From Vicinamibacterales bacterium (GTDB taxonomy: Bacteria > Acidobacteriota > Vicinamibacteria > Vicinamibacterales > UBA8438): 64,000 nucleotides of DNA. A program made the translations under genes and the position numbers. The stretch is from the NCBI GenBank assembly GCA_965116845.1, contig OZ220728.1, positions 3,970,309 to 4,034,308 on the forward strand. The letters run 5' to 3'. This document shows, piece after piece, positions 6,685 to 31,424 of this stretch; positions within the stretch are counted from its first letter, which is position 1; each line of letters opens with the position of its first letter. The notes under the pieces are model-generated. The model saw only the letters and a program-made list of their open reading frames with translations. It had not been told where the DNA came from and did not search any database.

Positions 6685-6730
6685 CTCTCGCCCTCCGTCA
6701 CCTCTGCGATTCGGCGCCCGAGGCCCACCC

Positions 6731-7249: not shown

Positions 7250-7274
7250 GGCAGGTCTCCCCTTCCCACGACCG

Positions 7275-8366: not shown

Positions 8367-8449
8367 CCGTCTCCTTGTCCCCTTGAGCCTTCCCCCGCCC
8401 GACGACCGGGCTGGTTGGCGGCCCACTTTCGAAAGACCGCTGTCTCCTG

Positions 8450-9031
8450 CTACTCGACCACCTGCACGCGGGTCTCGGCGACCGCCCACGACGAGGCCGG
8501 CATCTGGGCCGTCGCCCGGTTGAGCCCGCGCAGGAACGTCCCTGCCGTCGACGCCAGGACCATCGGTCGCGTCAGCGTGCTCCCCTGGTTGTCGGCGAAG
8601 CCCACGAACGGCTGCCGCGTCACCAGGAACACCACCCGGTCGACCCCCGCCGGCAGCGACGCCCGGATCACGAGGCCGTCGCCCGCACGCGGATACTCCA
8701 CCTGTGCCCCGGCCGCCACCGGCAGGTTCTCCGCCAGCAGCGTCACCCCGCCGTCCGCGTTGACCAGGTAGAGGTGCCCGAAGCCCGCCTCGCTCGACGA
8801 CACCCGGAAGCCGATCGGCGTCCCCACCGCCACCGGCGGCGCCATCGTCGGCGTGACGCCCACCGCGAACGCCGGGGAGTCGTTCGCCGCCACGTCCACC
8901 CCGCCCGCCCCCACCAGCACGCCGTTCCCCGTCGACCGGCAGCCGGCGGCCGCCACCAGAACCAACGCCGATGCCGCCGCCAGCACGCTGGCCCGGGAGG
9001 TCCCGAACCGCGCCACTCCGTATCCGGTCAT
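8450..9031 (-). CDS. DUF4384-like lipoprotein
   Basis: ATG 9031 overlaps the kinase stop (ATGA); lipobox LVAAAGC; FRVSSSEAGFGHLYLVNADGGVTLLAENLP DUF4384-like core. Confidence 0.7.
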   Translation of the reverse strand: MTGYGVARFGTSRASVLAAASALVLVAAAGCRSTGNGVLVGAGGVDVAANDSPAFAVGVTPTMAPPVAVGTPIGFRVSSSEAGFGHLYLVNADGGVTLLAENLPVAAGAQVEYPRAGDGLVIRASLPAGVDRVVFLVTRQPFVGFADNQGSTLTRPMVLASTAGTFLRGLNRATAQMPASSWAVAETRVQVVE

Positions 9032-11892
9032 TGCTCCGCTCCCCCCGTCTTCCCTTCGGCCCTTGTCCACGCACTGACCGAGGCCGTTGCCGCTGTAGAC
9101 GCCGCGGACCCCGAAACCGGACGCGGATCGATGGTCTCCCCCGCGTGCGCCGCCGATGGGTTCGGGTGGAGCGACAGGGGCGCCGGCGGCAGCGAGTCGG
9201 GGACGAGCGTGCGGACGGCCGCCGCCAACGCGCCCGCCGTCGTCGGCCGGGCGGCGGGCGGCGCGGCCAGCATCTCGCCGGCGAACGACAACACCGCCTC
9301 GACGGCGTCCGCGTCGGCCGCGCCCGAGCGGGCGGCCGGCCGCGTCCGCAGCCGCTGGTTGCGGATGGCGTCGACCATCTCCTCGACCGTCGCGCCCGCG
9401 AACGGGCGCCGGCCCGCCACCGTCTCGTACAGCACCACGCCCAGCGCCCACACGTCGTCCGCCGCCCCCGCCGGCCGCCCGCCGAGCGCCTCCGGCGACA
9501 GGTACGCCACCGTGCCCCCGCCCAACGGCCGGCCGCCCCCGCTGATGTCCGCCAGCCCGAAGTCGAGCAGCTTCGGCGTCCCGCGCGACGTGAACCCGAT
9601 GTTGCTCGGCTTCACGTCCCCGTGCCGGTACCCCGCCGCGTGCAGCGCGTCGAGCGCCTCGGCCACCGCCGTCACCACCCACACCGCCGCCCCCGGCGCC
9701 AGGGGCTCGCCCCCCAGGCGCGCCGCCAGCGTGCCCCCGTCGAGGTGCTCCATCACCAGCAGCGGCCGCCCCCGCCACGTCTCGAGGCTGTGGATCTGGG
9801 CGACCCCCGGGTGCGCCGACGCCGCCATCGCCTGCGCTTCCCGCCGCAACTGCGCCAGGCCCGCCGCCGACACGCCGTCCAGCGTCTTGATCGCCACCAC
9901 CCGGTCCAGCCCGATGTCCCGCGCCCGGTACACCGTCCCCATCCCGCCCGCGCCGATGCGCCGCTCCACCGCCAGCTTGCCCGCCACCAGCACCGGAAGC
10001 GGCGCCTCCGCCCACTCGCCTCCGCACGCGTCGCACCGGGCGCCCGCGTCGACCGCCGACGCGACCCGCCCGCACGCCCCGCACGCCCGGGCCGGCGGAG
10101 CCTCCCCGGTCGACCCGGGCTGCCGCAGCCGCGCGAGCGTCAGGCTCGCCGCCCCCGCCAGCGCCTCCAGGAACGACACGTCCACCGGCCGCAGCCGGGC
10201 GCCGTCCGCCCGGCGACCCACCACCAGGAGGCCGGACAGCGTTGCCCCGGACCCGGCAACCGGCACGACCTGCGCCGCCCCCGTCGCCGTCACCCACGCC
10301 GCCTCGCCCGGCGGCAGCAGCTCGAACGCCGTCTGCCGGCCCTCCGGATCGACCAGGAGCGAGCTGCGGATCTCGGCCAGGACGCCGGCCAGCAGCGATG
10401 CGCGCGGCAGGGGAGCGAGCGTCCCGCCGGGCGCCGCGAACCGCTCCTCGGACGCGTCGAGCGCCGCCAGCATCCCGGCCGGCACCCCGGCGCCCTGCCG
10501 CGCCGCGCGCGCGACCGCCGCCTCGACCTCCGCCGCCTCGGTCGCCTGCCCGAGTTCGCCGCCCGCCGCCGCCAGCGCCCGCCGCTGGTCCGCCGTCTCC
10601 GGCGCCACCCACCCGTCCAGGCTCGCGAGCAGACGCTCCCGCCACGCCAGCGCCACCAGCGCCGCGGCCGCGGCCCCCACGCAACCCTGCGACAGCGGGT
10701 CCGCGAGCACCGCGCGCACCGGCACGTCCGCGCGACTCACCAGCAGCGCCGCCAGCGCCGCCAGCGGCCCCGCCGTCAGCACCGCCAGGCCGCCCCGCGT
10801 CAGCAGCCGTCGCGCCGACACCCGCACCGTCGTCCGCACGTCCAGCACCCGCAGCGCGATCGCCGCATACAGCGTCAGGTACGGGACCGCCAGCGCCGAC
10901 ACGCTCCCCAGCACACTCACCCAGTTCGCCGCGGCCACCGTGACCGTCCCCGGGGAGAACACCTCGACCACCCCTTCGACGTGCGGCGCCAGCGCCGCCG
11001 CAATCCCGCCCACGAACAGCAGTGTCCGCGAACGGTCCTCGCGCGCCACGCCCCCGACGCGCAGCAGCAGGACGGCCAGTCCGGCCAGGAGGAAGAGGCA
11101 GTGCGGGCCGAAGAACGCCGGCGCGATGTAGGCGCCCGGAACCTCCCGCGCCAGCACGCCCAGCGATGGGCTCAGCGCCTGCACCGGCGCCAGGTTCGCC
11201 ACCTGCAGCACGCCGCCCACCCCGGCCGCCAGCAGCGCCATGCGCGTCGCCCAGGCGTCGAGCCGCGTCCCCCGCCGGACCCGCGGGAACTCCCGCACGA
11301 ACAGCCAGAAGACGGCCGGCAGGAAGAGCTCCGGGTAGAGGCCCACGCCGAGACCGCCCGCAACCGGCTGCGCCCAGAACGCGCCGAGCAGCACCAGCAC
11401 CGCCCCCAGCAGCCGCGACCGGCGGTCGAACCGGCCGCCCACGTACAGCACCAGCCCGCACACCGGATACAGAACGTGGGGGACGATGCGCAGCAGGAGC
11501 GCCGCCGGCGACAGGTCCTCCACCGGCAGGAAGCCCCGCGCCGACTCGTCCGGGCCCGCCAGCGCGGCCAGCATCCCCTCGGCCGCCGCCGGCAGCAGCG
11601 CCGCTCCCGTGAACAGCCCGACCGCCGACTCGAGCAGGCCGATGGCGACCAGCACCCCGACCGCGCGCCGCGCGAGCCGCGACTCCCGGCCGTCGCGCCC
11701 GGCCCGTCGGCTCGATGCCACCGCCGCCCCCGCGGTGCGGCAGATCCCCTCCAGCGTGCGGAGCTGCGCCAGCGCGCCCCGCTCGGCAGGGTGGGCGCGC
11801 GACGTGCACCGCTCCCAGTCCACCTCCTGGCCGGCGGCGACCGCATCCGCCACCTCCGGCAACAGCCCGCGTCCCCGCGTCTCGCGACTCAC
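9028..11892 (-). CDS. Polytopic membrane Ser/Thr protein kinase (N-terminal multi-TM region, GAF-like middle region, Cys-rich ribbon, C-terminal kinase)
   Basis: GTG 11892 after GGAGGAG; kinase blocks IGAGGMGTVYRA, VVAIKTL, HGDVKPSNIGF (non-RD), LLDFGLA, YLSPE; Cys cluster CGACGRV..ARCDACG before the kinase; about 8-10 hydrophobic segments; paralog at 59626..62391. Confidence 0.88.
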   Translation of the reverse strand: MSRETRGRGLLPEVADAVAAGQEVDWERCTSRAHPAERGALAQLRTLEGICRTAGAAVASSRRAGRDGRESRLARRAVGVLVAIGLLESAVGLFTGAALLPAAAEGMLAALAGPDESARGFLPVEDLSPAALLLRIVPHVLYPVCGLVLYVGGRFDRRSRLLGAVLVLLGAFWAQPVAGGLGVGLYPELFLPAVFWLFVREFPRVRRGTRLDAWATRMALLAAGVGGVLQVANLAPVQALSPSLGVLAREVPGAYIAPAFFGPHCLFLLAGLAVLLLRVGGVAREDRSRTLLFVGGIAAALAPHVEGVVEVFSPGTVTVAAANWVSVLGSVSALAVPYLTLYAAIALRVLDVRTTVRVSARRLLTRGGLAVLTAGPLAALAALLVSRADVPVRAVLADPLSQGCVGAAAAALVALAWRERLLASLDGWVAPETADQRRALAAAGGELGQATEAAEVEAAVARAARQGAGVPAGMLAALDASEERFAAPGGTLAPLPRASLLAGVLAEIRSSLLVDPEGRQTAFELLPPGEAAWVTATGAAQVVPVAGSGATLSGLLVVGRRADGARLRPVDVSFLEALAGAASLTLARLRQPGSTGEAPPARACGACGRVASAVDAGARCDACGGEWAEAPLPVLVAGKLAVERRIGAGGMGTVYRARDIGLDRVVAIKTLDGVSAAGLAQLRREAQAMAASAHPGVAQIHSLETWRGRPLLVMEHLDGGTLAARLGGEPLAPGAAVWVVTAVAEALDALHAAGYRHGDVKPSNIGFTSRGTPKLLDFGLADISGGGRPLGGGTVAYLSPEALGGRPAGAADDVWALGVVLYETVAGRRPFAGATVEEMVDAIRNQRLRTRPAARSGAADADAVEAVLSFAGEMLAAPPAARPTTAGALAAAVRTLVPDSLPPAPLSLHPNPSAAHAGETIDPRPVSGSAASTAATASVSAWTRAEGKTGGAEQ

Positions 11893-11992
11893 CGTCTCCT
11901 CCTGCCTCGGGTGCCCGCACGCCCCATTGCCGGGAGAAGACGTCTGCCCGCGCCGAACCGGACACGGGGCGCCGGCACCGTGCCGACCTCGC

Positions 11993-12604
11993 TCAGGCGT
12001 CCATCTCCTGCGAGAGACGCACCAAGGCCCGCCGTAGCGCCTTGCGCGCCGCTTCCGCGCTGGCCCGCTCGTCCACCAGCGCCAGTTGCCGGAACGAGTA
12101 CCCCAGCTCGGCACGACCCACGATCAGCCGCCGATCGCGCGCCGTCAGCCGTCCCAGCGCCCGCAGGTAGTGCGCCCAGGACTCCCCGTCGATCGCCTGC
12201 TGCAGCGGGGACGGGCCGCCGGCCGGCAGCTCCTCCCCGTCCAGCTCGTCCTGGGGGCCGCGGCGCACCACGCGCCGCATCTCGTCCCGGATGCGGTGGT
12301 CGACCGCACGCAGGAGGTACGCCCGGAACGCCGCGCTGCTCGTCGACTCGAATCCCGTCAGCCGACGCACCGTGTGCAGCAGGACTTCCTGCACGAGGTC
12401 GCTCGTGTCGGCCACCCCTCGCGCCCAGACCGGCAGCCGCCCCCGCGTCCGACGCCGCAGCCACGGGAACCAACGCGCGAACAGCGCCCCCGCCGCCGAA
12501 CGGTCCCCCCGCCGCGCCCGCGCCAGGAGCTCCGACGACCCGGTCGTCGCCGCCGACTCGGCAGGCTGCCTCCCCGCGTGGGCTCGTCTCTCGTCTCCCG
12601 GCAT
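11993..12604 (-). CDS. ECF-type RNA polymerase sigma factor (kinase-associated type)
   Basis: ATG 12604; region 2 DTSDLVQEVLLHTVRRL and region 4 LTARDRRLIVGRAELGYSFRQLAL; paralog at 62388..63041. Confidence 0.85.
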   Translation of the reverse strand: MPGDERRAHAGRQPAESAATTGSSELLARARRGDRSAAGALFARWFPWLRRRTRGRLPVWARGVADTSDLVQEVLLHTVRRLTGFESTSSAAFRAYLLRAVDHRIRDEMRRVVRRGPQDELDGEELPAGGPSPLQQAIDGESWAHYLRALGRLTARDRRLIVGRAELGYSFRQLALVDERASAEAARKALRRALVRLSQEMDA

Positions 12605-12639
12605 CTCCCTGCCTGTGCGACCCGCCGGGAAGACGACCT

Positions 12640-12870
12640 CTCGTCGATCGAGATCCGCCGAAGGGTGTGCAGCAGCGCGTGCTGCTACAACGTCGCTCGT
12701 CTCGGCGAACCGCCGCGCCCAGCCCGGCAGGCGACCGGGCGCCCGCCGCCGCCACGGGAACTGCCGCGCGAACACCGCGTCGACCGCCGAGCGACCCCCT
12801 GCCGCACCCGCTCGAGCAGCGCCGTGGAGGCGGTCGCCTCAGCCGGCCGACTCGGAATGCCGTCTCCCGG
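12640..12870 (-). pseudogene. Diverged partial duplicate of the sigma-factor N-terminus
   Basis: EATASTALLERVRQG../..AVDAVFARQFPWRRRAPGRLPGWARRFAETSDVV parallels SAATTGSSELLARARRGDRSAAGALFARWFPWLRRRTRGRLPVWARGVADTSDLV of the intact gene; frameshifted and truncated. Confidence 0.55.
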
Positions 12871-12910: not shown

Positions 12911-14734
12911 CTAATCCGGCGTCCTCGCCACGCGAAAACCGATGTACGAGGCCCGGCTCTCCGCATCGCCCCTGTCGCGATACGCCGACCGGAGGCTCCA
13001 CGGGCCGTAGAGCCAGGAACCGCCACGAACCACACGACGACTACAGTTCCCGCCCGTCGTCCAGGCCGAGCCGTCCCGCGGCGCCCGCGCGTAGTTCTCG
13101 TGCCAGCAGTCCTCCACCCACTCCCAGACGTTGCCGTGCACGTCGTGCAGGCCCCACGCGTTCGCCGCGAACGACCCCGCCGGAGCCGTCCGATCGTCAT
13201 CCCAGCGGCTGCGGCAACCATCGCAGTTGGCCCGGTTGCGGCCGATGTCGTCCCCCCAGGTGTAGCGCGTCGTCGACCCCGCGCGCGCTGCGTACTCCCA
13301 CTCCGACTCGCTCGGCAGCCGGTACGCCTCCCCCGTCTCCTCGGAGAGCCACGCCGCATACGCGGTCGCGTCCTCCCACGACACGTTCATCACCGGGCGC
13401 CCCCCACGGCCCCAGCCCCCGTCGTTCGGACGGTTCCGGCGCGTCGCCTGGGCGAAGCGGTCGTACTCCTCGAACGTCACCTCGTAGACGCCCAGCGCGA
13501 ACGAGGGCACCTCCACCTCGTGGACCGGCCGTTCGTCGTCCTCGCAGTCCCGCCCCGACACGCAGCCCATCCGGAAGCGCCCCGACGGGACCACCACCAG
13601 CTCCGGACACTCCGGGCAGTCCCGGAACACCGTTCCCGCCTCCCGCTGCTGCGGTCGGTCCGCCCCGGGCCGAGCGGTGGGCCGATCCGCCGACCCACCC
13701 CGCAGCGCCGACAGCCGGTTCGTCGCCAGCGCCCGGAACGTTCCGGCCGGAAACTGCCGCAGGTACGCCTCGAAGTCCGCCGCGCTCTCGCTGTTCACGA
13801 TCGACTGCCAGAACACCGTCTCCTGCTGCGCCAGGACCGTCGCCGACAGCCCGTCCGCCACCGTCACCGTGCCCGGGCCCGACGCGGCCCCCAGGTAGTG
13901 CTCGCCCAGCAGCGACCCGTACTCGTGCGGACGCTGCTCCCCGTCGGTCGCCTCCAGCACCTGCGCCCGCACCCGCCGGAACACGGCGCTCAGTTCCAGC
14001 GGTTGCTCCAGGTACGCCAGCAGCGCCGTCGTGTACGGACTGTTGCGCCCGTCGCCGTCCGCCGCCGTCGTCCCCGCCGCGGCGGCGTACGCCACCAGCG
14101 TCTCCTCCCCCAGCAGCGCCTCGTCCAGCTCCCCGAAGCTCCCCCGGCTCACGCTCCGCGCCGCCCCCGTCCGCTGCATCGACCGGGAGAGCGGGTTGTT
14201 CCGGCACGCGTCCAGGATCACCACCCGCAGCGCCGCCCCCGTCGTCGCCCGCAGCACCCGGTCCAGCGCCAGCGCCTCGTACTCCACGTCCGTGTCCCGC
14301 TCCAGGCGCGCGTCCACCGGCACGAGGTAGTTCACCCCGTCCACCTCCAGACCGTGCCCCGCGTAGAACACCACCGCCACGTCCGCTCCCGCGCTCGAAC
14401 GCGCGAACAGCCGCAACGACTCGTTCATCCCCGCCAGGTCCGCGTCCCGCACCGTCGTCACGTCGAACCCCAACCGCCCCAGCGCCGCCGCCATGTCCGC
14501 CGCGTCGTTCCCCGGGTTCGGCAGCGCCCCGATCGCGGCGTAGGTGCCGTTCCCCACCACCAGTGCTACGCGGCCCGCCGCCAGCGCGACCGGCGACGCC
14601 GCCAGCACCGCCAGCCCCACCAGCACCGAAAGCACCACTGCCCGCCGGAGCCCGATGCGGTGCCCCCGGCCGCACGAAGCGCAGCGTGCCGCTTCCGTCC
14701 GCCCTCCTCTTCGATCGGCACTCTCAGTCCACAT
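12911..14734 (-). CDS. DGR target 1: exported caspase (peptidase C14) - FGE-sulfatase/C-type-lectin fusion
   Basis: ATG 14734 7 nt after AGGAGGAA; hydrophobic leader; caspase dyad FYAGHGLE / ILDACRNNP; FGE domain RLPSESEWEYAARAG, HGNVWEWVEDCW, VVRGGSW; C-terminal 124 nt matches the TR. Confidence 0.92.
   Translation of the reverse strand: MWTESADRRGGRTEAARCASCGRGHRIGLRRAVVLSVLVGLAVLAASPVALAAGRVALVVGNGTYAAIGALPNPGNDAADMAAALGRLGFDVTTVRDADLAGMNESLRLFARSSAGADVAVVFYAGHGLEVDGVNYLVPVDARLERDTDVEYEALALDRVLRATTGAALRVVILDACRNNPLSRSMQRTGAARSVSRGSFGELDEALLGEETLVAYAAAAGTTAADGDGRNSPYTTALLAYLEQPLELSAVFRRVRAQVLEATDGEQRPHEYGSLLGEHYLGAASGPGTVTVADGLSATVLAQQETVFWQSIVNSESAADFEAYLRQFPAGTFRALATNRLSALRGGSADRPTARPGADRPQQREAGTVFRDCPECPELVVVPSGRFRMGCVSGRDCEDDERPVHEVEVPSFALGVYEVTFEEYDRFAQATRRNRPNDGGWGRGGRPVMNVSWEDATAYAAWLSEETGEAYRLPSESEWEYAARAGSTTRYTWGDDIGRNRANCDGCRSRWDDDRTAPAGSFAANAWGLHDVHGNVWEWVEDCWHENYARAPRDGSAWTTGGNCSRRVVRGGSWLYGPWSLRSAYRDRGDAESRASYIGFRVARTPD
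12919..13042 (-). repeat. DGR variable region VR1
   Basis: 124-nt match to TR 15011..15134; by hand 17 substitutions at TR adenines (coding strand) plus 2 silent non-A differences. Confidence 0.9.
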
Positions 14735-14973
14735 CAGCGTTCCTCCTGTTACAACCATCACCCGCACCGCAGCCTTGCTCCGCGGCGCCTGCTCCCCCGC
14801 TCCGGCCGTCACTCGCCGGTCTGCACCGCGAGCGTCGTCCGCCGCACCGAACGGCAGCCGGCGCCCGTCGCCCTCCGCGGTGGGCCAGGACGGGCGCCGG
14901 CCGTGGAGCCGCCGCGGAAGTCCGGCGGCCCCTGCTCAACATGACCGGCCCGGATGGACGCACCCGTGCGCGC

Positions 14974-14997
14974 CCGGCGGGGCCGTGACCCCGCCGG
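14974..14997 (-). other. GC hairpin (9-bp stem, 6-nt loop) just 3' of the TR
   Basis: ccggcgggg ccgtga ccccgccgg; lies 14 nt downstream (minus sense) of the TR end. Confidence 0.6.
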
Positions 14998-15010
14998 CTC
15001 CGGCCGCGGT

Positions 15011-15134
15011 GCGTGCTCGCCACGCGAAAACCGATGTTCGTGTTCCGGTTCTCGGCATCGTTCCTGTTGCGATTCGCCGAACGGAGGTTCCTCGGGTTGT
15101 TGTTCCAGGAACCGCCACGAACCACACGACGACT
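15011..15134 (-). repeat. DGR template repeat (TR)
   Basis: Non-coding copy of the VR starting 9 nt after the RT stop; reads SWNNNPRNLRSANRNRNDAENRNTNIGFRVAS with 9 AAC + 1 AAT codons at the positions that vary in the VRs. Confidence 0.9.
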
Positions 15135-15143
15135 GGGGGCCGG

Positions 15144-16226
15144 TCAGGCCCCCGGGACCGGCCGCCCGCGCGGCGCGAACCACCCGTCCCGGAAGATCGA
15201 GCGGCGCAGACGCCGGGTATCGGCGTGCGCCGCGTGCGCTACCCACGCGCCCACTCGCTGCTCCACCTCCGCCCGCCGCACGCTCCCCGCGCGCCACCGG
15301 TCCCGCAGCCCGCGCAGCCGGCGGCGGAACCGCCGCACGTTCGGCTCCGGCAGCCGCCGGCGGCCCCCGGGCAGCAACACGTACCCGAGGAACTCCGCCG
15401 GCTCCGACGTCCGTGCGATGCGCGTCTTCCGCGGGTGCAACGACAGCCGCCGTCCCGCCAGATACGCGGCCACGCGACCGCGCCAAATCCCGAGCTGCCC
15501 GGCATCGGCGGCGAACAGCGCGAAGTCGTCCACGTAGCGCAGGTACGGCGCCCGCAGCACCTCGGTGACGAAGTGGTCGAACCCGTCGAGGTAGACGTTC
15601 GCGAAGAGCTGGCTCGTCAGGTTCCCGATCGGCAGCCCGCGGCGGCGCTCATAGGGCGTGAACAGGTCGTCGCCGGGATAGTAGTGATGGACCGGCTCCT
15701 GCGGATTCGACCCGTCGATGATCCGGTCGAGCACCGCGAGCGTCCGTCGGCAGGCCACGCGCCGCCGGAGGTCGGCCTTCAGGACTGCGTGGTCGATGGC
15801 CGGGAAGTAGCGCAAGACGTCGCCGCGGAGAACGTAGTCGTGGCGGTCGCGGAAGCGCTCGAACTGACGCACCGCCCGGTGCGTCCCCTTGCCGGTCCGG
15901 TTGGCGTAGCTGTGCGCGATGAAGCCCCGCTCGAACAGCGGCCCCACGACCGCGTGCACGGCGTGGTGCACCACCCGGTCCCGGAACGGCGCCGCCGAAA
16001 CCAGGCGCCGCTTCGGCTCCGTCACCTCGATCTCGACGTAGCGGCCCGGGCGCCAGCTTCCGGCTCGGAGCTCCCGTTCCAGCCGCAGCACCTCCGTCTC
16101 CAGGTTGGCCAGGAACGCCGCCGGCACCGGCGTCCGCCGCTTCCCGGCCACGGCCCGCAAGGCCGCCGGCGCAAGCGCCTCGAACGAGGCGACGGCGTCG
16201 AACAGCCCGTCACGCGCGCGCGGCAT
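15144..16226 (-). CDS. DGR reverse transcriptase
   Basis: 360 aa; IGNLTSQLFANVYL (DGR-type motif 4) and YLRYVDDFALF (YxDD); adjacent to Avd and the TR. Confidence 0.93.
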   Translation of the reverse strand: MPRARDGLFDAVASFEALAPAALRAVAGKRRTPVPAAFLANLETEVLRLERELRAGSWRPGRYVEIEVTEPKRRLVSAAPFRDRVVHHAVHAVVGPLFERGFIAHSYANRTGKGTHRAVRQFERFRDRHDYVLRGDVLRYFPAIDHAVLKADLRRRVACRRTLAVLDRIIDGSNPQEPVHHYYPGDDLFTPYERRRGLPIGNLTSQLFANVYLDGFDHFVTEVLRAPYLRYVDDFALFAADAGQLGIWRGRVAAYLAGRRLSLHPRKTRIARTSEPAEFLGYVLLPGGRRRLPEPNVRRFRRRLRGLRDRWRAGSVRRAEVEQRVGAWVAHAAHADTRRLRRSIFRDGWFAPRGRPVPGA

Positions 16227-16575
16227 CGTGCGCCTGCTGGGTCTTCCGCCAGCCGCCGATCAGCCGGCCCGTCTCGTCGATCGACCGCGCCGCGTGCGCG
16301 TAACGCTGCCCGTCCAGGTGCCGCAGGTCCTTCGCCAGCCGGCACAGGTAGCGCAGCTTCTCGATGCCGAGGTTCGCCGCCGCCAGGTGCGGCCCACGCG
16401 CCCGGGTGTACGTCGCGTCGATCAGCCGCTCCAGCACATCGAGCGCCGTCGCCTGCAGCCGGTCCCCCAGCAGGAACTTCTGGCTCCGCGGGAACCGCTC
16501 CACCGTCGGCACCAGCCACAGCACGAACCGGTACATTGCCTCCAACGCCGGCCCCGTCCGCCGCGCGGCATCCAT
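16210..16575 (-). CDS. avd: Avd-like accessory variability determinant (four-helix-bundle, 23S rRNA-IVS protein family)
   Basis: ATG 16575 after GGAGG; 121 aa, basic and helical (MYRFVLWLVPTVERFPRSQKFLLGDRLQATALDVLERLIDA...); overlaps the RT start by 17 nt. Confidence 0.8.
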   Translation of the reverse strand: MDAARRTGPALEAMYRFVLWLVPTVERFPRSQKFLLGDRLQATALDVLERLIDATYTRARGPHLAAANLGIEKLRYLCRLAKDLRHLDGQRYAHAARSIDETGRLIGGWRKTQQAHDAARA

Positions 16576-16626
16576 CGTCACCTCCGTGCATCTTCCCACC
16601 GCCCGCGTCGCCTGACCGCCCGCGGG

Positions 16627-16660
16627 ACGAAAGAGGTAAGGAGTTGAAGGGACAAAGACC
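16627..16660 (-). repeat. Conserved AT-rich post-stop element (copy 2)
   Basis: acGAAAGAGGTAAGGAgtTGAAGggacAAAGAcc. Confidence 0.55.
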
Positions 16661-18669
16661 TAATCAAGCGTCCTCGCCACGCGAAAACCGATGCGCGCGT
16701 TCCGGGTCTCGGAATCGAAGATGAAGCGATCCGCCGAACGGAGGTCATTCGGGGGAGCACTCCAGGAACCGCCTCGACCCACTCGCCCATTGCAGTTACC
16801 GCCCGTCGTCCACGCCGAGCCGTCGCGCGGGGCCCGCGCGTAGTTCTCGTGCGAGCAGTCCTGGACCCATTCATACACGTTGCCGTGCATGTCGTACAGG
16901 CCCCACGCGTTCGCCGCGAACGAGCCCGTCGGCGCCGTCCGATTCGCGTCGTCCCAGCGGCCCTGACGACCCGCACAGTTCGCTCGGCTGCGGCCGCTGT
17001 CGTCGCCCCAGGTGTACCGCGTCGTCGTCCCCGCGCGCACCGCGTACTCCCACTCCGACTCGCTCGGCAGCCGGTACTCGTCCCCCGTCTCCTCCGAGAG
17101 CCACGCCGCATACGCCGTCGCGTCCTCCCACGACACGTTGATCACCGGGCGCCCCCCGCGGCCCCAGCCCTCGTCGCCGGGCCGTTCCCGGCCCGTCGCC
17201 GCCGCGAAGCCGTCGTATTCCTCGAACGTCACCTCGTACACCCCCAGAGCGAACGACGGCACCTCCACCTCGTGCACCGGGACCTCGTCGTCCTCGCAGT
17301 CGCGTCCCGACACGCAGCCCATCCGGAAGCGACCCGCCGGGATGACCACCAGCTCCGGGCACTCCGGGCAGTCCCGGAACACCTCTCCCGGCTCCCGGGC
17401 CCGAGGCGGGTCCACGACGGCGGGGGCGGGCGCCGCCTCGCGCAGCACCGCCAGCCGGTTCGCCGCCAGCGGCGCGTAGATCCCGCTCGGCCAGCGCGCC
17501 AGGTACGCCTCGAAGTCGGCCGCGTTCGTGCTGTCCCGCATCGACTCCCAGAAGACCGTCTCCGCCCGGGTCAGCTCCGCCACCGGCACGCTCGCCGTCG
17601 CCGGTGGCGCCGCTACGGGGGCCGGGACCGTGGCCGGCGGCGAGGGGGCGGCGGCGGAGAGGGCGGCGGCCGGCACCGGCGCCCCCAGAGCGGCCGCGCC
17701 CACCGCGTCCAGGTACCCGGTCGCCGAAGCGTCCCGCGACGTCTGCCAGCCCCGGATGGCCGCCCGCGTCGCCGGACCGAACACCCCGTCCGCCGGCCCC
17801 GGCGAGAACCCCGCCCGCGTCAGCCCCTGCTGCACCAGCCGCCGCGACGCACGGTCCAGGCCCAGGGCCGCCTCCACCGCGCGCGGCTCCACGCCCGTCG
17901 CCGCGCGCAGGTAGTGCTCCCCCAGCAGCGACGCATACTCGTGCGGGCGCTGACGCCCCTCCGTCGACTCCAGCACCCGCGCCCGAACCTCGCGGAACAG
18001 CAACCCGAGCTCCAGCGGCTGCTCCAGGTACGACAGCAACGCCGACGTGTACGGGCTGTTCCGCCCCGTCCCGTCGTCCGCCGTCGTCCCCGCCGCCGCC
18101 GCATACGCCACCAGCGTCTCGTCCCCCAGCAACGCTTCGTTCAGGTCCCCGAAGCTCCCCCGGCTCACGTTGCGCGACGCCCCCGTCCGCTGCATCGACC
18201 GGGCCAGCGGGTTGTTCCGGCACGCGTCCAGGATCACCACCCGCAGGTCCGCGCCCACCGTCGACGCCAGCACGTCGTCCAGCACCACCGCCTCGAACCG
18301 CACGTCCGTGTCCCGCTCCAGACGCGCGTCGACGGGGACGAGGTAGTTCACGCCGTCCATCTCCAGGCCGTGCCCCGCGTAGAACACCAGGGACACGTCC
18401 GCCCCCGCGCTCTCCCGCGTGAACACCCGCAACGCCTCGGTCATCGCCGCCCGGTCCGCGTCCCGCACCGTCGTCACCTCGAACCCGATGCGGCGCAGCG
18501 CCGCCGTCATGTCCGCCGCGTCGTTCCCCGGGTTCGGCAGCGGCCCGATGTGCGCATACGTGCCGTTGCCCACCACCAGGGCCACCCGGCCGGCGGCGAA
18601 CGCGTCCGGCGGCGACGCCACCAGAACGACCGCCAGCAGCAAGAGGGCGCCGAGCTTCGCAGATCGCAT
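16660..18669 (-). CDS. DGR target 2: exported caspase - peptidoglycan-binding domain - FGE/C-type-lectin fusion
   Basis: ATG 18669; signal peptide MRSAKLGALLLLAVVLVASPPDAFAA; FYAGHGLE / ILDACRNNP; PG_binding_1-like GPADGVFGPATRAAIRGWQ; FGE domain as in target 1; C-terminal VR. Confidence 0.92.
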   Translation of the reverse strand: MRSAKLGALLLLAVVLVASPPDAFAAGRVALVVGNGTYAHIGPLPNPGNDAADMTAALRRIGFEVTTVRDADRAAMTEALRVFTRESAGADVSLVFYAGHGLEMDGVNYLVPVDARLERDTDVRFEAVVLDDVLASTVGADLRVVILDACRNNPLARSMQRTGASRNVSRGSFGDLNEALLGDETLVAYAAAAGTTADDGTGRNSPYTSALLSYLEQPLELGLLFREVRARVLESTEGRQRPHEYASLLGEHYLRAATGVEPRAVEAALGLDRASRRLVQQGLTRAGFSPGPADGVFGPATRAAIRGWQTSRDASATGYLDAVGAAALGAPVPAAALSAAAPSPPATVPAPVAAPPATASVPVAELTRAETVFWESMRDSTNAADFEAYLARWPSGIYAPLAANRLAVLREAAPAPAVVDPPRAREPGEVFRDCPECPELVVIPAGRFRMGCVSGRDCEDDEVPVHEVEVPSFALGVYEVTFEEYDGFAAATGRERPGDEGWGRGGRPVINVSWEDATAYAAWLSEETGDEYRLPSESEWEYAVRAGTTTRYTWGDDSGRSRANCAGRQGRWDDANRTAPTGSFAANAWGLYDMHGNVYEWVQDCSHENYARAPRDGSAWTTGGNCNGRVGRGGSWSAPPNDLRSADRFIFDSETRNARIGFRVARTLD
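16668..16791 (-). repeat. DGR variable region VR2 (more diverged)
   Basis: Same 124-nt register as the TR; many A-site changes, plus non-adenine differences (for example TR AGG vs ATC, GCC vs TCC, GTT vs GGT). Confidence 0.75.
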
Positions 18670-18774
18670 TCTTCCCCTCCCCGTTGCGTCGACGCTCTCA
18701 GAGGAACGCCGTCTCGTCAGTGGTGGCCGCGCCCCGTTTCGAGAGGCCGTCATCGGGACGTCTGTTCCAGGATT

Positions 18775-18830
18775 CCAGTCGATGTAGTACGAGACGCGCG
18801 CCCACCTGTGCGCACCCGCGGCCGAGTTCC
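18775..18830 (-). pseudogene. Short 3' remnant of a trypsin-like protease gene
   Basis: ccagtcgatgtagtacgagacgcgcgcccacctg... reads RVSYYIDW, homologous to the end of 5171..6079 and to 22255..22870. Confidence 0.6.
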
Positions 18831-19090
18831 GGGTTCTTGTCGCGATTCCGTAGCGGACAACGGAGCCCGGTCCGTCAGGACATCGGCGCTGCACGGAGAG
18901 CTTCGAGCGTGGTCAACCGGTGCACCCGGCCGCTCTCGTATGCTGCGCAACCGGACCCATCAACGAACATGGTCGGCATTTCTTGGTGGTTGTCAAGGGT
19001 ACGGCCAGACGGTGTTTCCGCCTTCTTCTACCAATTCGATGGAGCGCGGAAAGCTATATGCCGCAGATTCGGGGTCCGGCTCCCAGAGTC

Positions 19091-19107
19091 ACTACCAATT
19101 AGGTAGT
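19091..19107. promoter_or_regulatory. Palindrome ACTACC-N5-GGTAGT, conserved in three cassette copies
   Basis: actaccaattaggtagt; a half-site ctaccaat lies about 65 nt upstream; copies at 23223..23237 and 29843..29858. Confidence 0.4.
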
Positions 19108-19204
19108 CACAAGAACGGTTGGAGCATCGGGCTGGAAACACGGGCCGAGCGTGCACCCGCGTGCCGTACGAGCTGCTGCGGTCGGTCCCGGCGCCGAAGT
19201 AATG

Positions 19205-19925
19205 AGGCGGGTAACCGGCATTGGGCGAGCACTACGCGTTCGGCGGCATCCTGGCCTCGTTGCACGACGTCATGCTCGGCGATGCCCGCTGGCCATGCTG
19301 TTCCGGACCGGAGGCCAGGACAGCCTGAACCCCCGGCTCGACGGGCCGGACGGCTCCTTCATCACCTGAGGACCTCCGAGACCCCGTCGACGCGGACGGC
19401 TGGGGGGTGTCGCGGATCGCATGGGTCACGAATCTGCTGCCCCACATCCGGCAGTGGCGTCCGTGTCCGGCAGGCGCTCGTACGGGCCGAGGCGCGGCAC
19501 ACGACCGGTCACGGCCCTGCTCGACAACCCGCGGGTCGGCGTCCTCCCACCTGGACCGGCGCGGGCCCGTCCTCGCCGCCAACGAACGCGCCCGACGCAT
19601 CCTCCGGAACGGCGACGGGCTGACGGACCGGGGACGGGATGCTCCCGCACGACGGCCGACCAGGCCCGGCTCGAGCGGATGGTGGGCGACGCGCTGCCGG
19701 GCTCCGGACGGGCTGCGGTCAGCGGGTCGATGCGGCTCCGCCGCTCGCCCGTGTTGCCGCCGTTCGTCGTACACGTCAAGCCCGTGCGCGGCCCGCAGCC
19801 CGACTACGGCGCGCGCCATGTCGCCGCGCTCGTGCTGGTCGTCGAGCCGGGGCGCCAGCATCGCCTCGATCCCGAGCGGGTCGCCACGACGCTCGAGCGG
19901 ACACCGGCGGAGGCTCAGGAGCACG
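19205..19925 (+). pseudogene. Regulator-like pseudogene (copy A), frameshifted with the C-terminus missing
   Basis: Segments GEHYAFGGILASLHDVML / MLFRTGGQDSLNPRLDGPDGSFIT* / TALLDNPRVG / DQARLERMVGDALPGSGRAAVSGSMRLRRSPVLPPFVVHVKPV...AALVLVVEPGRQHRLDPERVATTL in different frames. From memory this resembles the sensory part of a LuxR-type regulator family; no HTH is present. Confidence 0.35.
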
Positions 19926-20020
19926 AACCGGTCACATCGCCTCCAGTGCCGGCCCCGTCCGCCGCGCCGCGTCCCCCGGTCACCTCCCGCTGTGCCCTGG
20001 GGGCTCCGCCCCCAGACCCC

Positions 20021-20052: not shown

Positions 20053-22158
20053 CTAATCCAGCGTCCTCGCCACGCGAAAACCGATGACCGCGTGCCGGAG
20101 CTCGGCATCGACCCTGCTGCGAAGCGCCGAACGGAGGCTCCTCGGGTTGTCGATCCAGGAACCGCCACGAACCACACGACGACCGCAGTCTCCGCCGCGC
20201 GTCCAGGAGGAGCCGTCGCGGGGAGCACCGTCGTAGTCGTCGTGCCAGCAGTCCTCCACCCATTCCCACACGTTGCCCAGCACGTCGTGCAGCCCGAATG
20301 CGTTCGGGCGATAGGCGCCCACCGGCGACGTCCAGAGAACGCCGTCCGTGCAGTCAGCCACCGTCCAGTTGTCGAAGCGCGCCTCGAACGTCCTGTCTGC
20401 ACCGTTGGCGTACGCGCACCCGTCGTCCGGGTCGTCTCCCCAGTGCCGGCGCGTCGTCGTCCCCGCCCGCGCCGCGTACTCCCACTCTGCCTCGCTCGGC
20501 AGCCGGTACTCCTCCCCGGTCTCCGCGCTCAGCCACTGCACGTACGACTGCGCATCTTCCCAGTTCACGCACACCGCCGGATGGTCCCCGGCTTGCGGAT
20601 ACCCCGGGGAGCGCCACGACGCCTCCGAACGCCACTCCCAGCGCCTCTCGTCGGCGTCGAACGCGTAGCACCGGTCGCCCGCGCCGCGACCCGTCGCCGC
20701 CACAAACGCGGCGTACTCGTCCCGCGTCACCTCGTGCACGCCCAGCGCGAAGCGGTCGACCATCACCCGGTGCCGCGGCCGCTCCAAGTCGTAGCTCTCG
20801 TCGTCCCGCCGGTCCGACCCCATCAGGAACTCGCCCCCCGGCACGATCACCATCTCCGGGCAGGTCGGGCAGTCGCGGAACACCTCTCCTGGCTCCCGCG
20901 ACCGAGGCGGGTCTACCAGCGCCGGCGGGGCGCTCGCGGCCTCGCGCAGCGCCGCAAGGCGGTTCGTCGCCAGCGGCGCGTAGATCCCGCTCGGCCAACG
21001 CGCCAGGTACGCCTCGAAGTCGGACGCGTTCGTGCTGTCCCGCATCGACTCCCAGAAGAGCATCTCCGCCCGGGTCAGCTCCGCCGCCGGCACGCTCGCC
21101 GCCGCCAGCGGCGCCGACACGTCGGCCGGCGAGGTGGCCACGGTCGACAGGGCGGCAGACGGCACCGGCGCCCCCAGCGCCGCAGCCCCCGCAACGTCCA
21201 GATAGCCCGTCGCCGTCGCGCCCCGCGACGTCTGCCAGCCCCGGATCGCCGCCCGCGTCGCCGGACCGAACACTCCGTCCGCCGGGCCCGGCGAGAACCC
21301 CGCCCGCGTCAGCCCCTGCTGCGCCAGACGCCGCGACGCACGGTCCAGGCCCAGGGCCGCCTCCACCGCCCGCGGCTCCGCGCCCACCGCCGCCCGCAGG
21401 TAGTGCTCGCCCAGCAGCGACGCGTACTCGTGCGGACGCTGACGCCCCGCCGTCGCCTCCAGCACGCGCGCCCGCACCTCCCGGAACAGCAACCCGAGCT
21501 CCAGCGGCTGCTCCAGGTACGACAGCAGCGCCGACGTGTACGGGCTGTTCCGCCCCGTCCCGTCGTCCGCCGTCGTCCCCGCCGCCGCCGCATACGCCAC
21601 CAGCGTCTCGTCCCCCAGCAACGATTCGTCCAGGTTCCCGAAGCTCCCCCGGCTCACGCTCCGAGACGCACCCGTGCGTTGCATCGAACGGGCGAGCGGG
21701 TTGTTCCGGCACGCGTCCAGGATCACCACCCGCAGGTCGGCGCCCGTCGTCGACGCCAGCACGTCGTCCAGCTCGATCGCCTCGAACCGCACGTCCGTGT
21801 CCCGTTCCAGCCGCGCGTCGACTGGGACCAGGTAGTTCACCCCGTCCATCTCCAGGCCGTGACCCGCGTAGAACACCAGGGACACGTCCGCCCCCGCGCT
21901 CTCGCGCGTGAAGACCCGCAGCGCCTCCGCCAGCGCGTTCCGGTCCGCATCCCGGACCGTCGTCACGTCGAACCCGAGGCGGCGCAGCGCCGCCGTCATG
22001 TCCGCCGCGTCGTTCCCCGGGTTCGGCAGCGGCCCGATGTGCGCATACGTGCCGTTGCCCACCACCAGCGCCACCCGGCCGGCGGCGAAGGCGCCCGGCG
22101 GCGACGCCACCAGAACGAACGCCAGCAGCCAGAGGGCGCCGAGCTTCGCAAATCGCAT
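20053..22158 (-). CDS. DGR target 3: exported caspase - peptidoglycan-binding domain - FGE/C-type-lectin fusion (divergent FGE scaffold)
   Basis: Signal peptide MRFAKLGALWLLAFVLVASPPGAFAA; caspase and PG-binding parts nearly identical to target 2; different FGE scaffold (FALGVHEVTRDEYAAF, HPAVCVNWEDAQSY, LGNVWEWVEDCW); C-terminal VR. Confidence 0.92.
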   Translation of the reverse strand: MRFAKLGALWLLAFVLVASPPGAFAAGRVALVVGNGTYAHIGPLPNPGNDAADMTAALRRLGFDVTTVRDADRNALAEALRVFTRESAGADVSLVFYAGHGLEMDGVNYLVPVDARLERDTDVRFEAIELDDVLASTTGADLRVVILDACRNNPLARSMQRTGASRSVSRGSFGNLDESLLGDETLVAYAAAAGTTADDGTGRNSPYTSALLSYLEQPLELGLLFREVRARVLEATAGRQRPHEYASLLGEHYLRAAVGAEPRAVEAALGLDRASRRLAQQGLTRAGFSPGPADGVFGPATRAAIRGWQTSRGATATGYLDVAGAAALGAPVPSAALSTVATSPADVSAPLAAASVPAAELTRAEMLFWESMRDSTNASDFEAYLARWPSGIYAPLATNRLAALREAASAPPALVDPPRSREPGEVFRDCPTCPEMVIVPGGEFLMGSDRRDDESYDLERPRHRVMVDRFALGVHEVTRDEYAAFVAATGRGAGDRCYAFDADERRWEWRSEASWRSPGYPQAGDHPAVCVNWEDAQSYVQWLSAETGEEYRLPSEAEWEYAARAGTTTRRHWGDDPDDGCAYANGADRTFEARFDNWTVADCTDGVLWTSPVGAYRPNAFGLHDVLGNVWEWVEDCWHDDYDGAPRDGSSWTRGGDCGRRVVRGGSWIDNPRSLRSALRSRVDAELRHAVIGFRVARTLD
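20061..20184 (-). repeat. DGR variable region VR3
   Basis: By hand about 15 substitutions vs the TR, all at TR adenines (coding strand) apart from the G/C switch in the last 5 nt. Confidence 0.9.
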
Positions 22159-22254: not shown

Positions 22255-22870
22255 CAGGATCCAGTCGATGTAGTACGAGACGCGCGCCCACCTGCGCGCA
22301 CCCGCGGCCGAAGCTGACGACGCCGAGCTGCGTCCAGCCCGTCGGCCCGCCCGGCACCACCAGCGGACCGCCGCTGTCCCCCCTGGCACGAGTCCAGCGC
22401 GTCCCTGCTCGTACCCCGCGCACCCCTGGCCGTCCGTGACCGCTGACAGCCGTAGCGCTCAGCGCAGGTCGCGTTGTCGATCACCGGCAGGTCCCACCGC
22501 GCGCAGGCGGTCCGGCAGGGCGCGCGCCGCCACGCGGTACCGTCCCTGTTCCCACGCCGCCGCGCGCCCCCACCGGTCGCCACCGCGCACGCGCCCGGGC
22601 CGAGGTTCGCCTCGATCTGCCCCGACTGCAGCTGCACCGTCTCGAAACCGCGACACCGGCAACGGCGACGACAGCCGGACGAGCGCGATGTCGTTCCCCT
22701 CGTCCGCAGATGCTGCCGAAGGCGTTCGCGTTCCCCGCCATCCCCAGGCTTGGCGTCAAGTTGACTCCCAGCTCCTGGCTCATATCGAGTCCGCCCCCGG
22801 ACTGGGCTCGGACCTCACCCGCGGCGAGGGCCCACAGGACCGCCAACGACCGCCCCCGCTGCGGCGCCGG
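22255..22870 (-). pseudogene. Trypsin-like protease pseudogene (internal deletion plus frameshifts)
   Basis: GDSGGPLVVPGGPTGWTQLGVVSFGRGCAQ, IDNATCAE and a signal-like LAVLWALAAGEVRAQ in different frames; nucleotide-level homology to 5171..6079. Confidence 0.75.
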
Positions 22871-23222
22871 CCGCCGCTCCCCTCAGGAAGCCGCGCCGGT
22901 CGACCGTCGTCGAGCTCGCCGCCACCTTCTGCACGGACAGTTCTCCACCTGTGGAGTTCCGGGTTCTTGTCCCGATTCCGTAACGGAAAACGGAGCCCGG
23001 TCAGTCAGGACATCGGCGCTGCACGGAGAGCTTCGAGCGTGGGTCAACCGGTGCACCCGGCCGCTCTCGTAGGCTGCGCAGCCGGACCCATCAACGAAAC
23101 ATGGTCGGCATTTCCTGGTGGTTGTCAAGGGTACGGCCAGACGGTGTTTCCGCCTTCTTCTACCAATTCGATGGAATGCTGAGGCTATATGCCGCAGATT
23201 TGGTCTCGGCTCCCCCGAGTCC

Positions 23223-23237
23223 CTACCGATTTGGTAG
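23223..23237. promoter_or_regulatory. Palindrome CTACC-N5-GGTAG (copy 2)
   Basis: ctaccgatttggtag in the duplicated leader block. Confidence 0.35.
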
Positions 23238-23703
23238 TCGCAAGAACGGCTGGAGCATCGGGCTGGAAACACGGGCTGAGCGTGCATCAGCGTGCCGTAC
23301 GAGCGCTGGGGTCGGTCCCGGCAACGAAGAATGAGGCGGGTCACCAGCAGGGGCGAGCACGACGCGGTCGGCGGCATCCGGGCCTCGTTGCACGACGTCA
23401 TGCTCGACGATGTCCGCTGGCCTGACCGGAAACGACGGCCGCGAGGCCCCTGGCGACGGCCGAGTGCTCGTCGGGGCCATCTTGCTCACCGGCGTCCGCG
23501 AGGGCCTTCGGAACACGGATCCTGCGCCCAAAGAACCGACCACGGACGCACGTGGCGAGATCCCGGCTCCGGCGAAGTTCCCCGCGGTTGACAGAACCCG
23601 TCTCATCGGACGCCCGCGCGCCGATAACCGAACAAGCCGGATAGAGGCCGCCATCCTAAAGGCTCCCAACAGCCGGCAGATGTTCTAACCCATGCCCCAT
23701 CAC

Positions 23704-28927: not shown

Positions 28928-28989
28928 AGCCCAACATATACCATGACTGGTTCCCACGCCATAGCAGGCACCAAAACACCAGGATTTTC

Positions 28990-29638: not shown

Positions 29639-29842
29639 CTCTTCGCCTCCACTCCCCTCTTGCAGGACCGCCTTCAGCCCCCACCCTCGCCACGGGTCTG
29701 GGCCGGCGTCCGCGCCAGCAATATCGGCGGCGTTCCCGTCGTTGTCAAGGGTGCTGCCGGGCGGTGGATCGGCTCTCTACTACCAATCTGGTTGCGGATA
29801 GCAGAAGGCGTCTCCGTAGACAAGCGGACGCAGCCTCACATG

Positions 29843-29858: not shown

Positions 29859-29899
29859 TCAAAAAAGGACGCCGGGGAATGCCGGGGGAGAACACCCTG

Positions 29900-31420: not shown

Positions 31421-31424
31421 CGTG

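Follow-up and report, generated by a model that had tools for sequence, protein, structure and literature searches.

Evidence for a complete diversity-generating retroelement with avd-RT-TR gene order and three caspase-lectin target genes in a Vicinamibacterales genome

We analysed a stretch of 64,000 nucleotides (nt) of contig OZ220728.1 from a Vicinamibacterales bacterium (Acidobacteriota), here called the window, with a G+C content of 69%. On its minus strand, a gene for the accessory variability determinant (avd), a reverse transcriptase (RT) gene, a template repeat (TR) and a conserved spacer follow each other, and three nearby genes end in imperfect copies of the TR, the variable repeats VR1 to VR3 (Table 1). 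An earlier reading, made without database searches (the sequence-only reading), had proposed the core of a diversity-generating retroelement (DGR) at this place. The proposal is borne out by an RT closest to the solved structure 8ub7, an Avd assigned by an equivalog model, TR/VR divergence specific to adenines, VRs in formylglycine-generating enzyme (FGE)-sulfatase domains, a discriminator base between TR and VRs and a conserved RNA. The locus thereby combines the features by which DGRs are recognized: the RT type, adenine-biased TR/VR pairs, AAC/AAT codons, Avd, a C-terminal VR of lectin fold, the pair of initiation of mutagenic homing sites (IMH/IMH*) and a structured RNA. We are highly confident that Avd, RT, TR and a structured priming RNA form a complete DGR with its VRs in three nearby caspase-lectin genes, and we hold it to be very probable that this is a chromosomal DGR of avd-RT-TR (B2) architecture. 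The locus is an ordinary member of a well-known DGR class, since both the B2 order and caspase-lectin targets are already known. It adds a well-formed DGR for Vicinamibacterales-like Acidobacteriota, and the DGR papers that were searched for the phylum name describe none from this lineage.

Genes of the cassette and adenine bias of the repeats

The (I/L)GxxxSQ motif is a hallmark of DGR RTs. The best match of the window RT among solved structures in the PDB is 8ub7, a 328-amino acid chain named "Reverse transcriptase" (146 bits, E = 1.9e-41), which we take to be the DGR RT (bRT) of Bordetella phage BPP-1. In this alignment the motif PIGxLTSQLFANVY is common to both proteins and PIGNLTSQLFANVY stands opposite PIGSLTSQLFANVY. 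The RT further matches PHROG 1423 (RT) with 1e-101. The Avd protein scores 101.3 bits against NCBIfam NF033474 DivGenRetAVD, above the cut-off of 80, and matches Pfam bAvd (1.5e-17) and PHROG 3206 "Avd protein of DGR" (2e-22). Its gene starts with the ATG at 16575 downstream of a GGAGGT Shine-Dalgarno sequence and overlaps the RT gene by 17 nt. Both open reading frames (ORFs) are intact, the catalytic YVDD is present, and the G+C content at third codon positions (GC3) is 0.93. The 360-residue RT with a DGR-type motif and YVDD and the overlapping, basic Avd-like protein of 121 residues were thus correctly recognized in the sequence-only reading. That reading had also remarked on the TR lying downstream of the RT. 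The position is exact, but it is not unusual: avd, RT and TR in this order on one strand correspond to architecture B2 of Wu et al. 2018 (PMC5758913), which is also the norm in related loci as described below.

In frame, the TR reads ...SWNNNPRNLRSANRNRNDAENRNTNIGFRVAS and contains nine AAC codons and one AAT codon. All of its 29 adenines lie at codon position 1 (17) or 2 (12) and none at position 3. A 17-mer taken from the repeat occurs four times in the window compared with 0.31 expected occurrences, and a second copy of the TR was not found in the window. The divergence of each VR from the TR was assessed with a one-sided Fisher test on the 29 A sites and the 95 non-A sites of the TR. VR1 differs from the TR at 19 positions, 16 of them adenines (16/29 A versus 3/95 non-A sites changed; p = 8e-10), and VR3 at 16 positions, 15 of them adenines (15/29 versus 1/95; p = 1e-10). 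VR2 has 29 mismatches, of which 15 are at adenines (15/29 versus 14/95; p = 1e-4). The sequence-only reading had described a non-coding 124-nt copy of the 3' ends of three genes, beginning nine nt after the RT stop codon, and had read its AAC and AAT codons as the signature of adenine-directed mutagenesis; the located repeats, the codon counts and the mismatch distribution all agree with this.

Apart from the discriminator base, VR1 has two non-A mismatches to the TR and VR3 has none. Compared with each other, the two repeats agree at 97.9% of non-A sites and at 37.9% of A sites, while the 150 nt upstream, which serve as an internal control, are only 74.7% identical. Judged from the sequences, this is the expected pattern if one template recently or repeatedly overwrote both VR1 and VR3, making them uniform at non-A sites and scrambling them at A sites.

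All three target proteins carry a predicted Sec-type signal peptide and a Peptidase_C14 (caspase) domain, in which the motifs YAGHGLE and LDACRNN mark the His/Cys dyad, and in all three the FGE-sulfatase domain ends three residues before the stop codon (Pfam E = 1e-56 to 1e-65). The true start of target gene 1 is probably the ATG at 14758 or 14734. The product of target gene 2 is on record (P0143). Relatives of the C-terminal domain in the PDB include PvdO, FGE and the Treponema denticola DGR variable protein 2y3c (5e-7). Proteins that combine Peptidase_C14, with or without PG_binding_1, and FGE-sulfatase are common (2590 at E <= 1e-30). On the mechanism proposed below, about 15 residues would be hypervariable in the C-terminal FGE-sulfatase/C-type-lectin domain, on the face that binds the ligand. 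The signal peptides and the peptidoglycan-binding domain suggest a location outside the cytoplasm, and the targets may be hypervariable, exported caspase-like proteases with a lectin sensor.

Table 1. Features of the retroelement and its targets in the window (positions in the window; "-" is the minus strand)
Feature	Position	Strand	Remark
avd, accessory variability determinant, 121 aa, pI 10.4	16210-16575	-	NCBIfam NF033474, Pfam bAvd, PHROG 3206
DGR reverse transcriptase, 360 aa	15144-16226	-	IGNLTSQLFANVYL at residue 200, YVDD at residue 231
Template repeat (TR), 124 nt	15011-15134	-	starts 9 nt past the RT stop codon TGA (15144-15146)
VR1	12919-13042	-	3' end of target gene 1
VR2	16668-16791	-	3' end of target gene 2, canonical position just upstream of avd
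VR3	20061-20184	-	3' end of target gene 3
Target gene 1	12911-14812	-	signal peptide, Peptidase_C14, FGE-sulfatase (Pfam)
Target gene 2, 669 aa from ATG 18669	16660-18669	-	signal peptide, Peptidase_C14, PG_binding_1, FGE-sulfatase (Pfam)
Target gene 3, 701 aa	20053-22158	-	signal peptide, Peptidase_C14, PG_binding_1, FGE-sulfatase (Pfam)
Clamp helix, 5' arm UGACCGGCCC	15137-15146	-	covers the RT stop codon and stops 2 nt short of the TR
Clamp helix, 3' arm GGGCCGGUCA	14942-14951	-	followed by conserved CAUG(U/A)UGAG
Stem-loop, 9-10 bp, UCACGG cap	14974-14997	-	13 nt after the TR; candidate Avd-binding stem-loop by analogy with BPP-1
Spacer primer strand UGCGUCCA	14955-14962	-	UGCGU pairs with the TR 3' end ACGCA (15010-15014)
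Variable hairpin of the spacer RNA	14905-14932	-	single-sequence fold
Terminator-like hairpin, 12-15 bp, then weak U run	14858-14900	-	single-sequence fold
Pyrimidine-rich YYTTAC element after the VR1 stop codon	12880-12910	-	conserved in three copies
Pyrimidine-rich YYTTAC element after the VR2 stop codon	16629-16659	-	conserved in three copies
Pyrimidine-rich YYTTAC element after the VR3 stop codon	20022-20052	-	conserved in three copies
GC-rich 9-bp hairpin, IMH-associated inverted repeat	19996-20016	-	downstream of VR3; DNA fold
Remnant of the avd 5' end, 68 nt	19920-19987	-	downstream of VR3; start codon lost; 87% identity to 16520-16585

Covarying RNA, the discriminator base and elements behind the variable repeats

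About 190 nt downstream of the TR are conserved across phyla. In an RNA alignment of the window with 31 related loci (32 loci from several phyla), three helices were tested. The clamp helix around the TR is paired in 98.6% of alignment cells, and 7 of its 9 scored pairs are changed on both sides. The stem-loop behind the TR is paired in 93% of cells with compensatory changes in 8 of 9 pairs, and the helix between the TR 3' end and the primer strand is likewise paired in 93%, with 3 of 5 pairs changed on both sides. Taken together, the helices are paired in 95.2% of cells compared with 77.6% in shuffled alignments, and 18 of 23 pairs are changed on both sides. None of 500 shuffles matched the observed values, and controls in which the helices were slid along the alignment were paired in 35-45% of cells. 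RNAalifold independently predicts the clamp, the stem-loop and the TR:spacer helix, adds one G-C pair (G171-C234) and places TR base 15015 opposite spacer base C14957 in a 1x1 mismatch; the helices also agree with the fold of the single window sequence. Further hairpins in the spacer between 14858 and 14932 have a fold z-score of -3.1 and have equivalents of other sequence in related loci, which were not formally counted. An alternative hairpin, GCGCAC-GGG-UGCGU, that would compete with the TR:spacer duplex was rejected because it is not consistently formable in the relatives.

The positions of these elements suggest their roles. The base of the clamp lies 2 nt from the start of TR/VR homology (15134), and this placement fits a role in stopping cDNA synthesis. 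In the primer strand, C14956 pairs with G15016 and C14957 stands opposite the discriminator at 15015. The T, C and A columns of the strand are invariant in the 32 loci, and the invariant A14955 is a candidate for the priming nucleotide. In the ribonucleoprotein (RNP) of BPP-1, an Avd-binding stem-loop, commonly of 9 bp, lies just downstream of the TR, upstream and downstream sequences form the cPRT-stop duplex, and the template-primer duplex formed by TR and Sp ends at the priming adenosine (Handa et al., bioRxiv 10.1101/2023.10.23.563531). The RNA elements of the window map one-to-one onto this RNP, from which we infer their roles in protein binding and priming. Unlike in BPP-1, the candidate priming A of the window has no U partner in the predicted duplex. 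With its clean covariation of the helices, the natural variation among the related loci lends support to the BPP-1-derived model for the clamp or stop duplex, the Avd stem-loop and the cis-acting primer. Within the same RT clade, the Accumulibacter and Zoogloea loci L068, L071 and L076 have the order target-TR-spacer-avd-RT and keep both the clamp helix and the primer strand; the TR-spacer unit with its clamp, retained there upstream of avd, therefore acts as a portable module.

Towards their 3' ends, TR and VRs share a 24-nt invariant, GC-rich segment, ATCGGTTTTCGCGTGGCGAG[G/C]ACGC, as IMH/IMH* with one fixed difference. This discriminator is C in the TR (15015) and G in all three VRs (12923, 16672 and 20065). 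Among the related loci, with the window included, 44 TR-VR pairs have C or T in the TR and G or A in the VR. We scored 45 triplets of TR, VR and spacer: the TR has C or T with G in the VR in 41 of them, and three more have A in the VR. In 44 of the 45 the spacer base complements the VR base (C:G or U:A) and never the TR base; the sole exception, L013, is a mis-located discriminator. An A in the VR together with a spacer U is found in L021, L050 and L073, and A in both repeats with a spacer U in L012, L029 and L046. Where it falls in an arginine codon that reads CGG in the VR but CGC or CGT in the TR, the difference is synonymous, and it is therefore selected at the nucleotide level. For BPP-1 it was proposed that directionality is set by the RNA primer linked to the cDNA, which would form a more extensive duplex with IMH than with IMH* (Naorem et al. 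2017, PMC5703328). As far as sequence comparison goes, the covariation of discriminator and spacer supports this proposal in a distant clade; the concept itself is not new.

Directly after the stop codons of all three window VRs, and of nearly every VR of the clade, lies a G-poor, pyrimidine-rich element with YYTTAC repeats (TCTTTACCTCTTT...; in the window ...TTCAACTCTTTACCTCTTTC), which we refer to as the YYTTAC element. To our knowledge it has not been described before. Of 62 VRs of the clade, 49 have YYTTAC in the 65 nt that follow them, compared with 1.4% of background windows, and 23 have at least two copies, compared with 0.09%. Remote VRs that lack an avd behind them, and whose sequence diverges immediately afterwards, have kept the motif too. 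Candidate roles are target recognition, pausing of the replication fork or of transcription, and pairing with the Shine-Dalgarno sequence of avd, and the element offers a testable candidate for the step of cDNA integration. In the clade it is often followed by a GC-rich hairpin with a T run, in the window at VR3 only. A GC-rich hairpin boosts homing in BPP-1. GC-rich inverted repeats downstream of the IMH are found in about 34% of DGRs (Wu et al., PMC5758913). We speculate, with considerable doubt, that homing site and direction might be set by two clade-wide cis features, the YYTTAC element and a primer that complements the discriminator only in its VR form, with covariation from G:C to A:U between DNA target and RNA primer, and that would serve as a short guide favouring the VR over the TR.

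Proposed mechanism and alternative readings

Binding of Avd, priming in cis, the stop function of the clamp, the route of integration and activity at the present day are all modelled here on Bordetella phage BPP-1. On this model, avd, RT, TR and the spacer RNA of about 190 nt would be co-transcribed from the minus strand. The 10-bp clamp, with its 5' arm overlapping the RT stop codon and its 3' arm in the spacer, would close off the TR, and Avd would be recruited by the stem-loop of 9-10 bp just 3' of it. The spacer strand UGCGUCCA would pair with the TR 3' end and prime cDNA synthesis in cis. The RT would then copy the TR faithfully except at adenines and halt at the clamp, which could account for the sharp 5' end of TR/VR homology. 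The RNA-linked cDNA would finally replace the VR at the 3' ends of the three paralogous genes. Directionality could come from a single base, C in the TR and G in the VRs, with the primer RNA complementing the form found in the VRs.

Several observations weigh against an intact element that is working in this way. Exact-protein look-ups for RT and Avd matched no record, and a promoter scan of the window gave no promoter-like site. A terminator scan produced a single terminator-like match, over the VR3 stop codon, which adds nothing. The window carries a UCC insertion (14952-14954), absent from all 31 aligned relatives, that separates the primer strand from the 3' clamp arm. Close by, in the most conserved part of the spacer, it has CAUGUUGAG instead of the usual CAUGAUGAG (in DNA, CATGTTGAG versus CATGATGAG), with U at 14939 where the relatives nearly always have A. 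A GC hairpin is formed behind only one of the three VRs (z-scores of the downstream DNA fold: VR3 -3.4, VR1 +0.3, VR2 -1.0). Finally, VR2 has 14 non-A mismatches, of which 6 are in its first 18 nt, 7 in the variable core and one is the discriminator, and its non-A identity to the other VRs (84-86%) is near the identity of its flank to gene 1 (88.7%). VR2 therefore looks as if it had not been rewritten recently, as far as this can be judged from sequence; its 3'-most 40 nt before the discriminator differ from the TR at A only.

An alternative reading is that the element is a recently inactivated relic, in which the cassette looks intact, retrohoming no longer takes place and the VR patterns record past activity. 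The insertion and the A-to-T change in the spacer, the decay of VR2 at non-A sites, the missing GC hairpins at VR1 and VR2 and surroundings full of insertion sequence (IS) elements, truncated paralogs and an avd remnant would all fit such a relic. We nevertheless consider it unlikely. The avd and RT ORFs are intact, with YVDD and a GC3 of 0.93 as stated above, all three RNA helices can still be formed in the window sequence, and the CAUGUU (CATGTT) variant of the spacer is also present in L068, whose VR is A-biased. Because VR1 and VR3 are nearly free of non-A mismatches, any loss of function must have been very recent. Multi-target DGRs with non-A differences in one target and not in another have been described (Wu et al. 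2018, PMC5758913).

Two explanations for the state of VR2 were rejected. When VR2 was compared with the TRs of 37 related loci as other possible templates, its own TR was the best (14 non-A mismatches; at least 18 for the others). The lack of a GC hairpin is not the cause of its decay either, as VR1 and the avd-adjacent VR of L001 also lack the hairpin and yet differ from their templates at A only. The insertion was further searched for in metagenomes: a scan with the exact spacer including the 3-nt insertion gave 0 matches, and a gapped scan (GCGTCCA N1-6 GGGCCGGTCATG) gave at least 120 matches, of which the 40 inspected were unrelated coding DNA and uninformative on the tolerance of the insertion.

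That the RT belongs to another prokaryotic class, that is, to group II introns, retrons or the abortive infection (Abi) and defence-associated RTs (DRTs), and is not a DGR enzyme at all, has next to no probability. Generic RT similarity is certainly present: the NCBIfam model group_II_RT_mat gives 121.8 bits, the generic RT model of PADLOC and several DRT models match, and some database sources call the homologs "retron-type reverse transcriptase". The scores are, however, far below the cut-offs of those families, with 121.8 against 300 bits for the group II RT/maturase (TIGR04416), 28.3 against 235 for the retron RT (NF038233) and 37 against 390, 30 against 200 and 25 against 450 bits for Drt2, Drt3a and Drt4. 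The PADLOC DRT models reach at most 88 bits, under the 158 bits of the generic model. Among structures in the PDB, group II RTs reach 71 bits (7e-19) and retron-type RTs 39 bits (7e-9) at best, while the best solved relative is 8ub7, with whose RT the SQ-containing motif aligns, and Avd and an A-rich TR adjoin the gene. Rfam at its gathering score returned no family anywhere in the window, including no group II intron or retron RNA, and at E <= 1 no match in the TR and spacer region on the 3' flank of the RT. The sequence-only reading had named clustering with retron, group II or Abi RTs and TR/VR mismatches free of adenine bias as the two outcomes that would speak against it. By these scores the RT does not group with those families, and the mismatches are adenine-biased in all three VRs, and the DGR is therefore supported on both counts.

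Ordinary evolution of paralogs, with the TR as a pseudogene fragment, gene conversion and diversifying selection in the targets and an unrelated RT next to them, is effectively refuted by the adenine bias and can be given hardly any weight: the three targets are indeed mosaic paralogs with 72-94% nucleotide identity in blocks, so that recombination among them does occur, but gene conversion cannot account for the concentration of 46 of 64 mismatches on 29 template adenines at codon positions 1 and 2, the pattern of VR1 and VR3 is not predicted, and the fragment nine nt behind a DGR-type RT with Avd, the same layout in most related loci of several phyla and the covariation of the flanking RNA would all be left unexplained.

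Related loci, known systems and the neighbourhood

The RT belongs to a very large clade. Of 8000 scored candidates, 7985 match at E <= 1e-20, and the 120 best listed are 68-89% identical. Closest among the matches listed are metagenome-assembled genomes of Vicinamibacterales (Acidobacteriota), led by L001 with 89% RT identity; further relatives are found in Alpha-, Beta- and Gammaproteobacteria, Binatia, Nitrospirales, Gemmatimonadota (Palauibacter), Bryobacterales and Myxococcota. When 66 loci were screened by self-BLAST, most yielded TR/VR pairs in which adenines account for at least 75% of the mismatches. Most of these A-biased loci have a gap of about 450 nt between the end of a VR and the RT, enough to hold avd, and a TR that begins no more than a few tens of nt beyond the RT. 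The arrangement target-avd-RT-TR with A-biased VRs is thus found in most related loci, in Acidobacteriota, Proteobacteria, Binatia, Nitrospirales and Gemmatimonadota, and the avd-RT-TR order is therefore the norm for this RT clade. L001 has the layout target-avd-RT-TR-target, the same as the window. Many RT ORFs in the databases have 424-428 amino acids, about 65 more than the RT of the window, and one of them (P0092) has an FGE-sulfatase Pfam match; these longer calls are consistent with read-through into an in-frame TR.

Among the known systems, Bordetella phage BPP-1 (mtd-avd-TR-brt), whose RT we take to be the closest solved relative, shares with the window Avd, the adenine-specific divergence, an IMH/IMH*-type difference, a VR at the C-terminus of a C-type-lectin fold and a stem-loop just 3' of the TR. 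In both, the 3' end of the TR is paired with a spacer strand that terminates in an invariant A, and the primer is a better complement of the VR than of the TR. The systems differ in that TR and spacer of the window follow the RT, whereas in BPP-1 they lie between avd and RT, in the overlap of the 5' clamp arm with the RT stop codon in the window, and in the GC hairpin, which is present at just one of the three window VRs. The window element is also chromosomal with three exported caspase-lectin targets, whereas that of BPP-1 is phage-borne with a single tail-fibre target.

B2 DGRs with CLec1/FGE-sulfatase targets have been described, including the protease-domain subtypes b4 and b5 of category b (Wu et al. 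2018, PMC5758913). They resemble the window in gene order, VR class, an FGE-sulfatase domain carrying the VR, an N-terminal protease domain and multi-target cassettes in which one target has non-A differences and another differs at A only. In contrast to them, the window comes from a Vicinamibacterales-like host and its targets add PG_binding_1 and signal peptides. Variable proteins with orthocaspase-like N-termini are known from cyanobacterial DGRs (Vallota-Eastman et al. 2020, PMC7517822), and DGR-diversified sensors of conflict systems from multicellular bacteria (Dore et al. 2024, PMC10907252). There, as in the window, the C-type-lectin domain diversified by the DGR is joined to a peptidase of the caspase type, many non-diversified paralogs lie nearby, and trypsin-like and caspase-like genes and Ser/Thr kinases occur in the neighbourhood. 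Unlike those proteins, the window targets have Sec-type signal peptides and a peptidoglycan-binding domain, and STAND/NTPase, TIR and adapter domains were not detected next to the cassette. The TvpA DGR of Treponema denticola has in common with the window an FGE-sulfatase-type C-type-lectin target and multiple targets for one TR; it differs in that TvpA has no protease domain, while the window has the order avd-RT-TR and no HRDC gene was noted.

The avd remnant downstream of VR3 indicates, on the basis of sequence, that VR3 stems from a duplicated cassette whose avd-RT-TR was lost; VR3 would therefore now be served in trans.

A repeat family of about 0.5-1 kb with 87-100% identity (18824-19781, 22954-23422 and 29738-30592) is found upstream of genes 2 and 3 and close to a further caspase paralog; its ORFs (18.8-19.8, 22.9-23.4 and 29.7-30.6 kb) had no match in Pfam. 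Fragments of the C-terminus of a trypsin-like serine protease (GDSGGP...VSYYIDW) are located just upstream of genes 2 and 3 (18774-18825 and 22260-22382) and resemble the region 5194-5333 at about 5.2 kb. Of these, the one upstream of gene 3 seems to carry a frameshift and could be a pseudogene or an assembly error. Peptidase_C14 paralogs that carry no VR are found at 27992-29638 on the minus strand and at 28922-29857 and 30755-31915 on the plus strand. One of the VR-less caspase paralogs is truncated after about 100 amino acids beside a fragment of an ISL3 transposase, and the opposite strand carries another fragment. An IS110-family transposase (DEDD_Tnp_IS110 and Transposase_20) is encoded at 3074-4339 on the minus strand.

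Downstream of VR1, the region 6109-12775 on the minus strand encodes an extracytoplasmic function (ECF)-type sigma factor (11993-12775), two DUF4384 proteins and an OmpA-family protein, and at 9028-12114, on the same strand, a Ser/Thr protein kinase of 1028 amino acids with a long multi-pass N-terminal region. The genes of this region could form a signalling neighbourhood for the caspase-lectin proteins.

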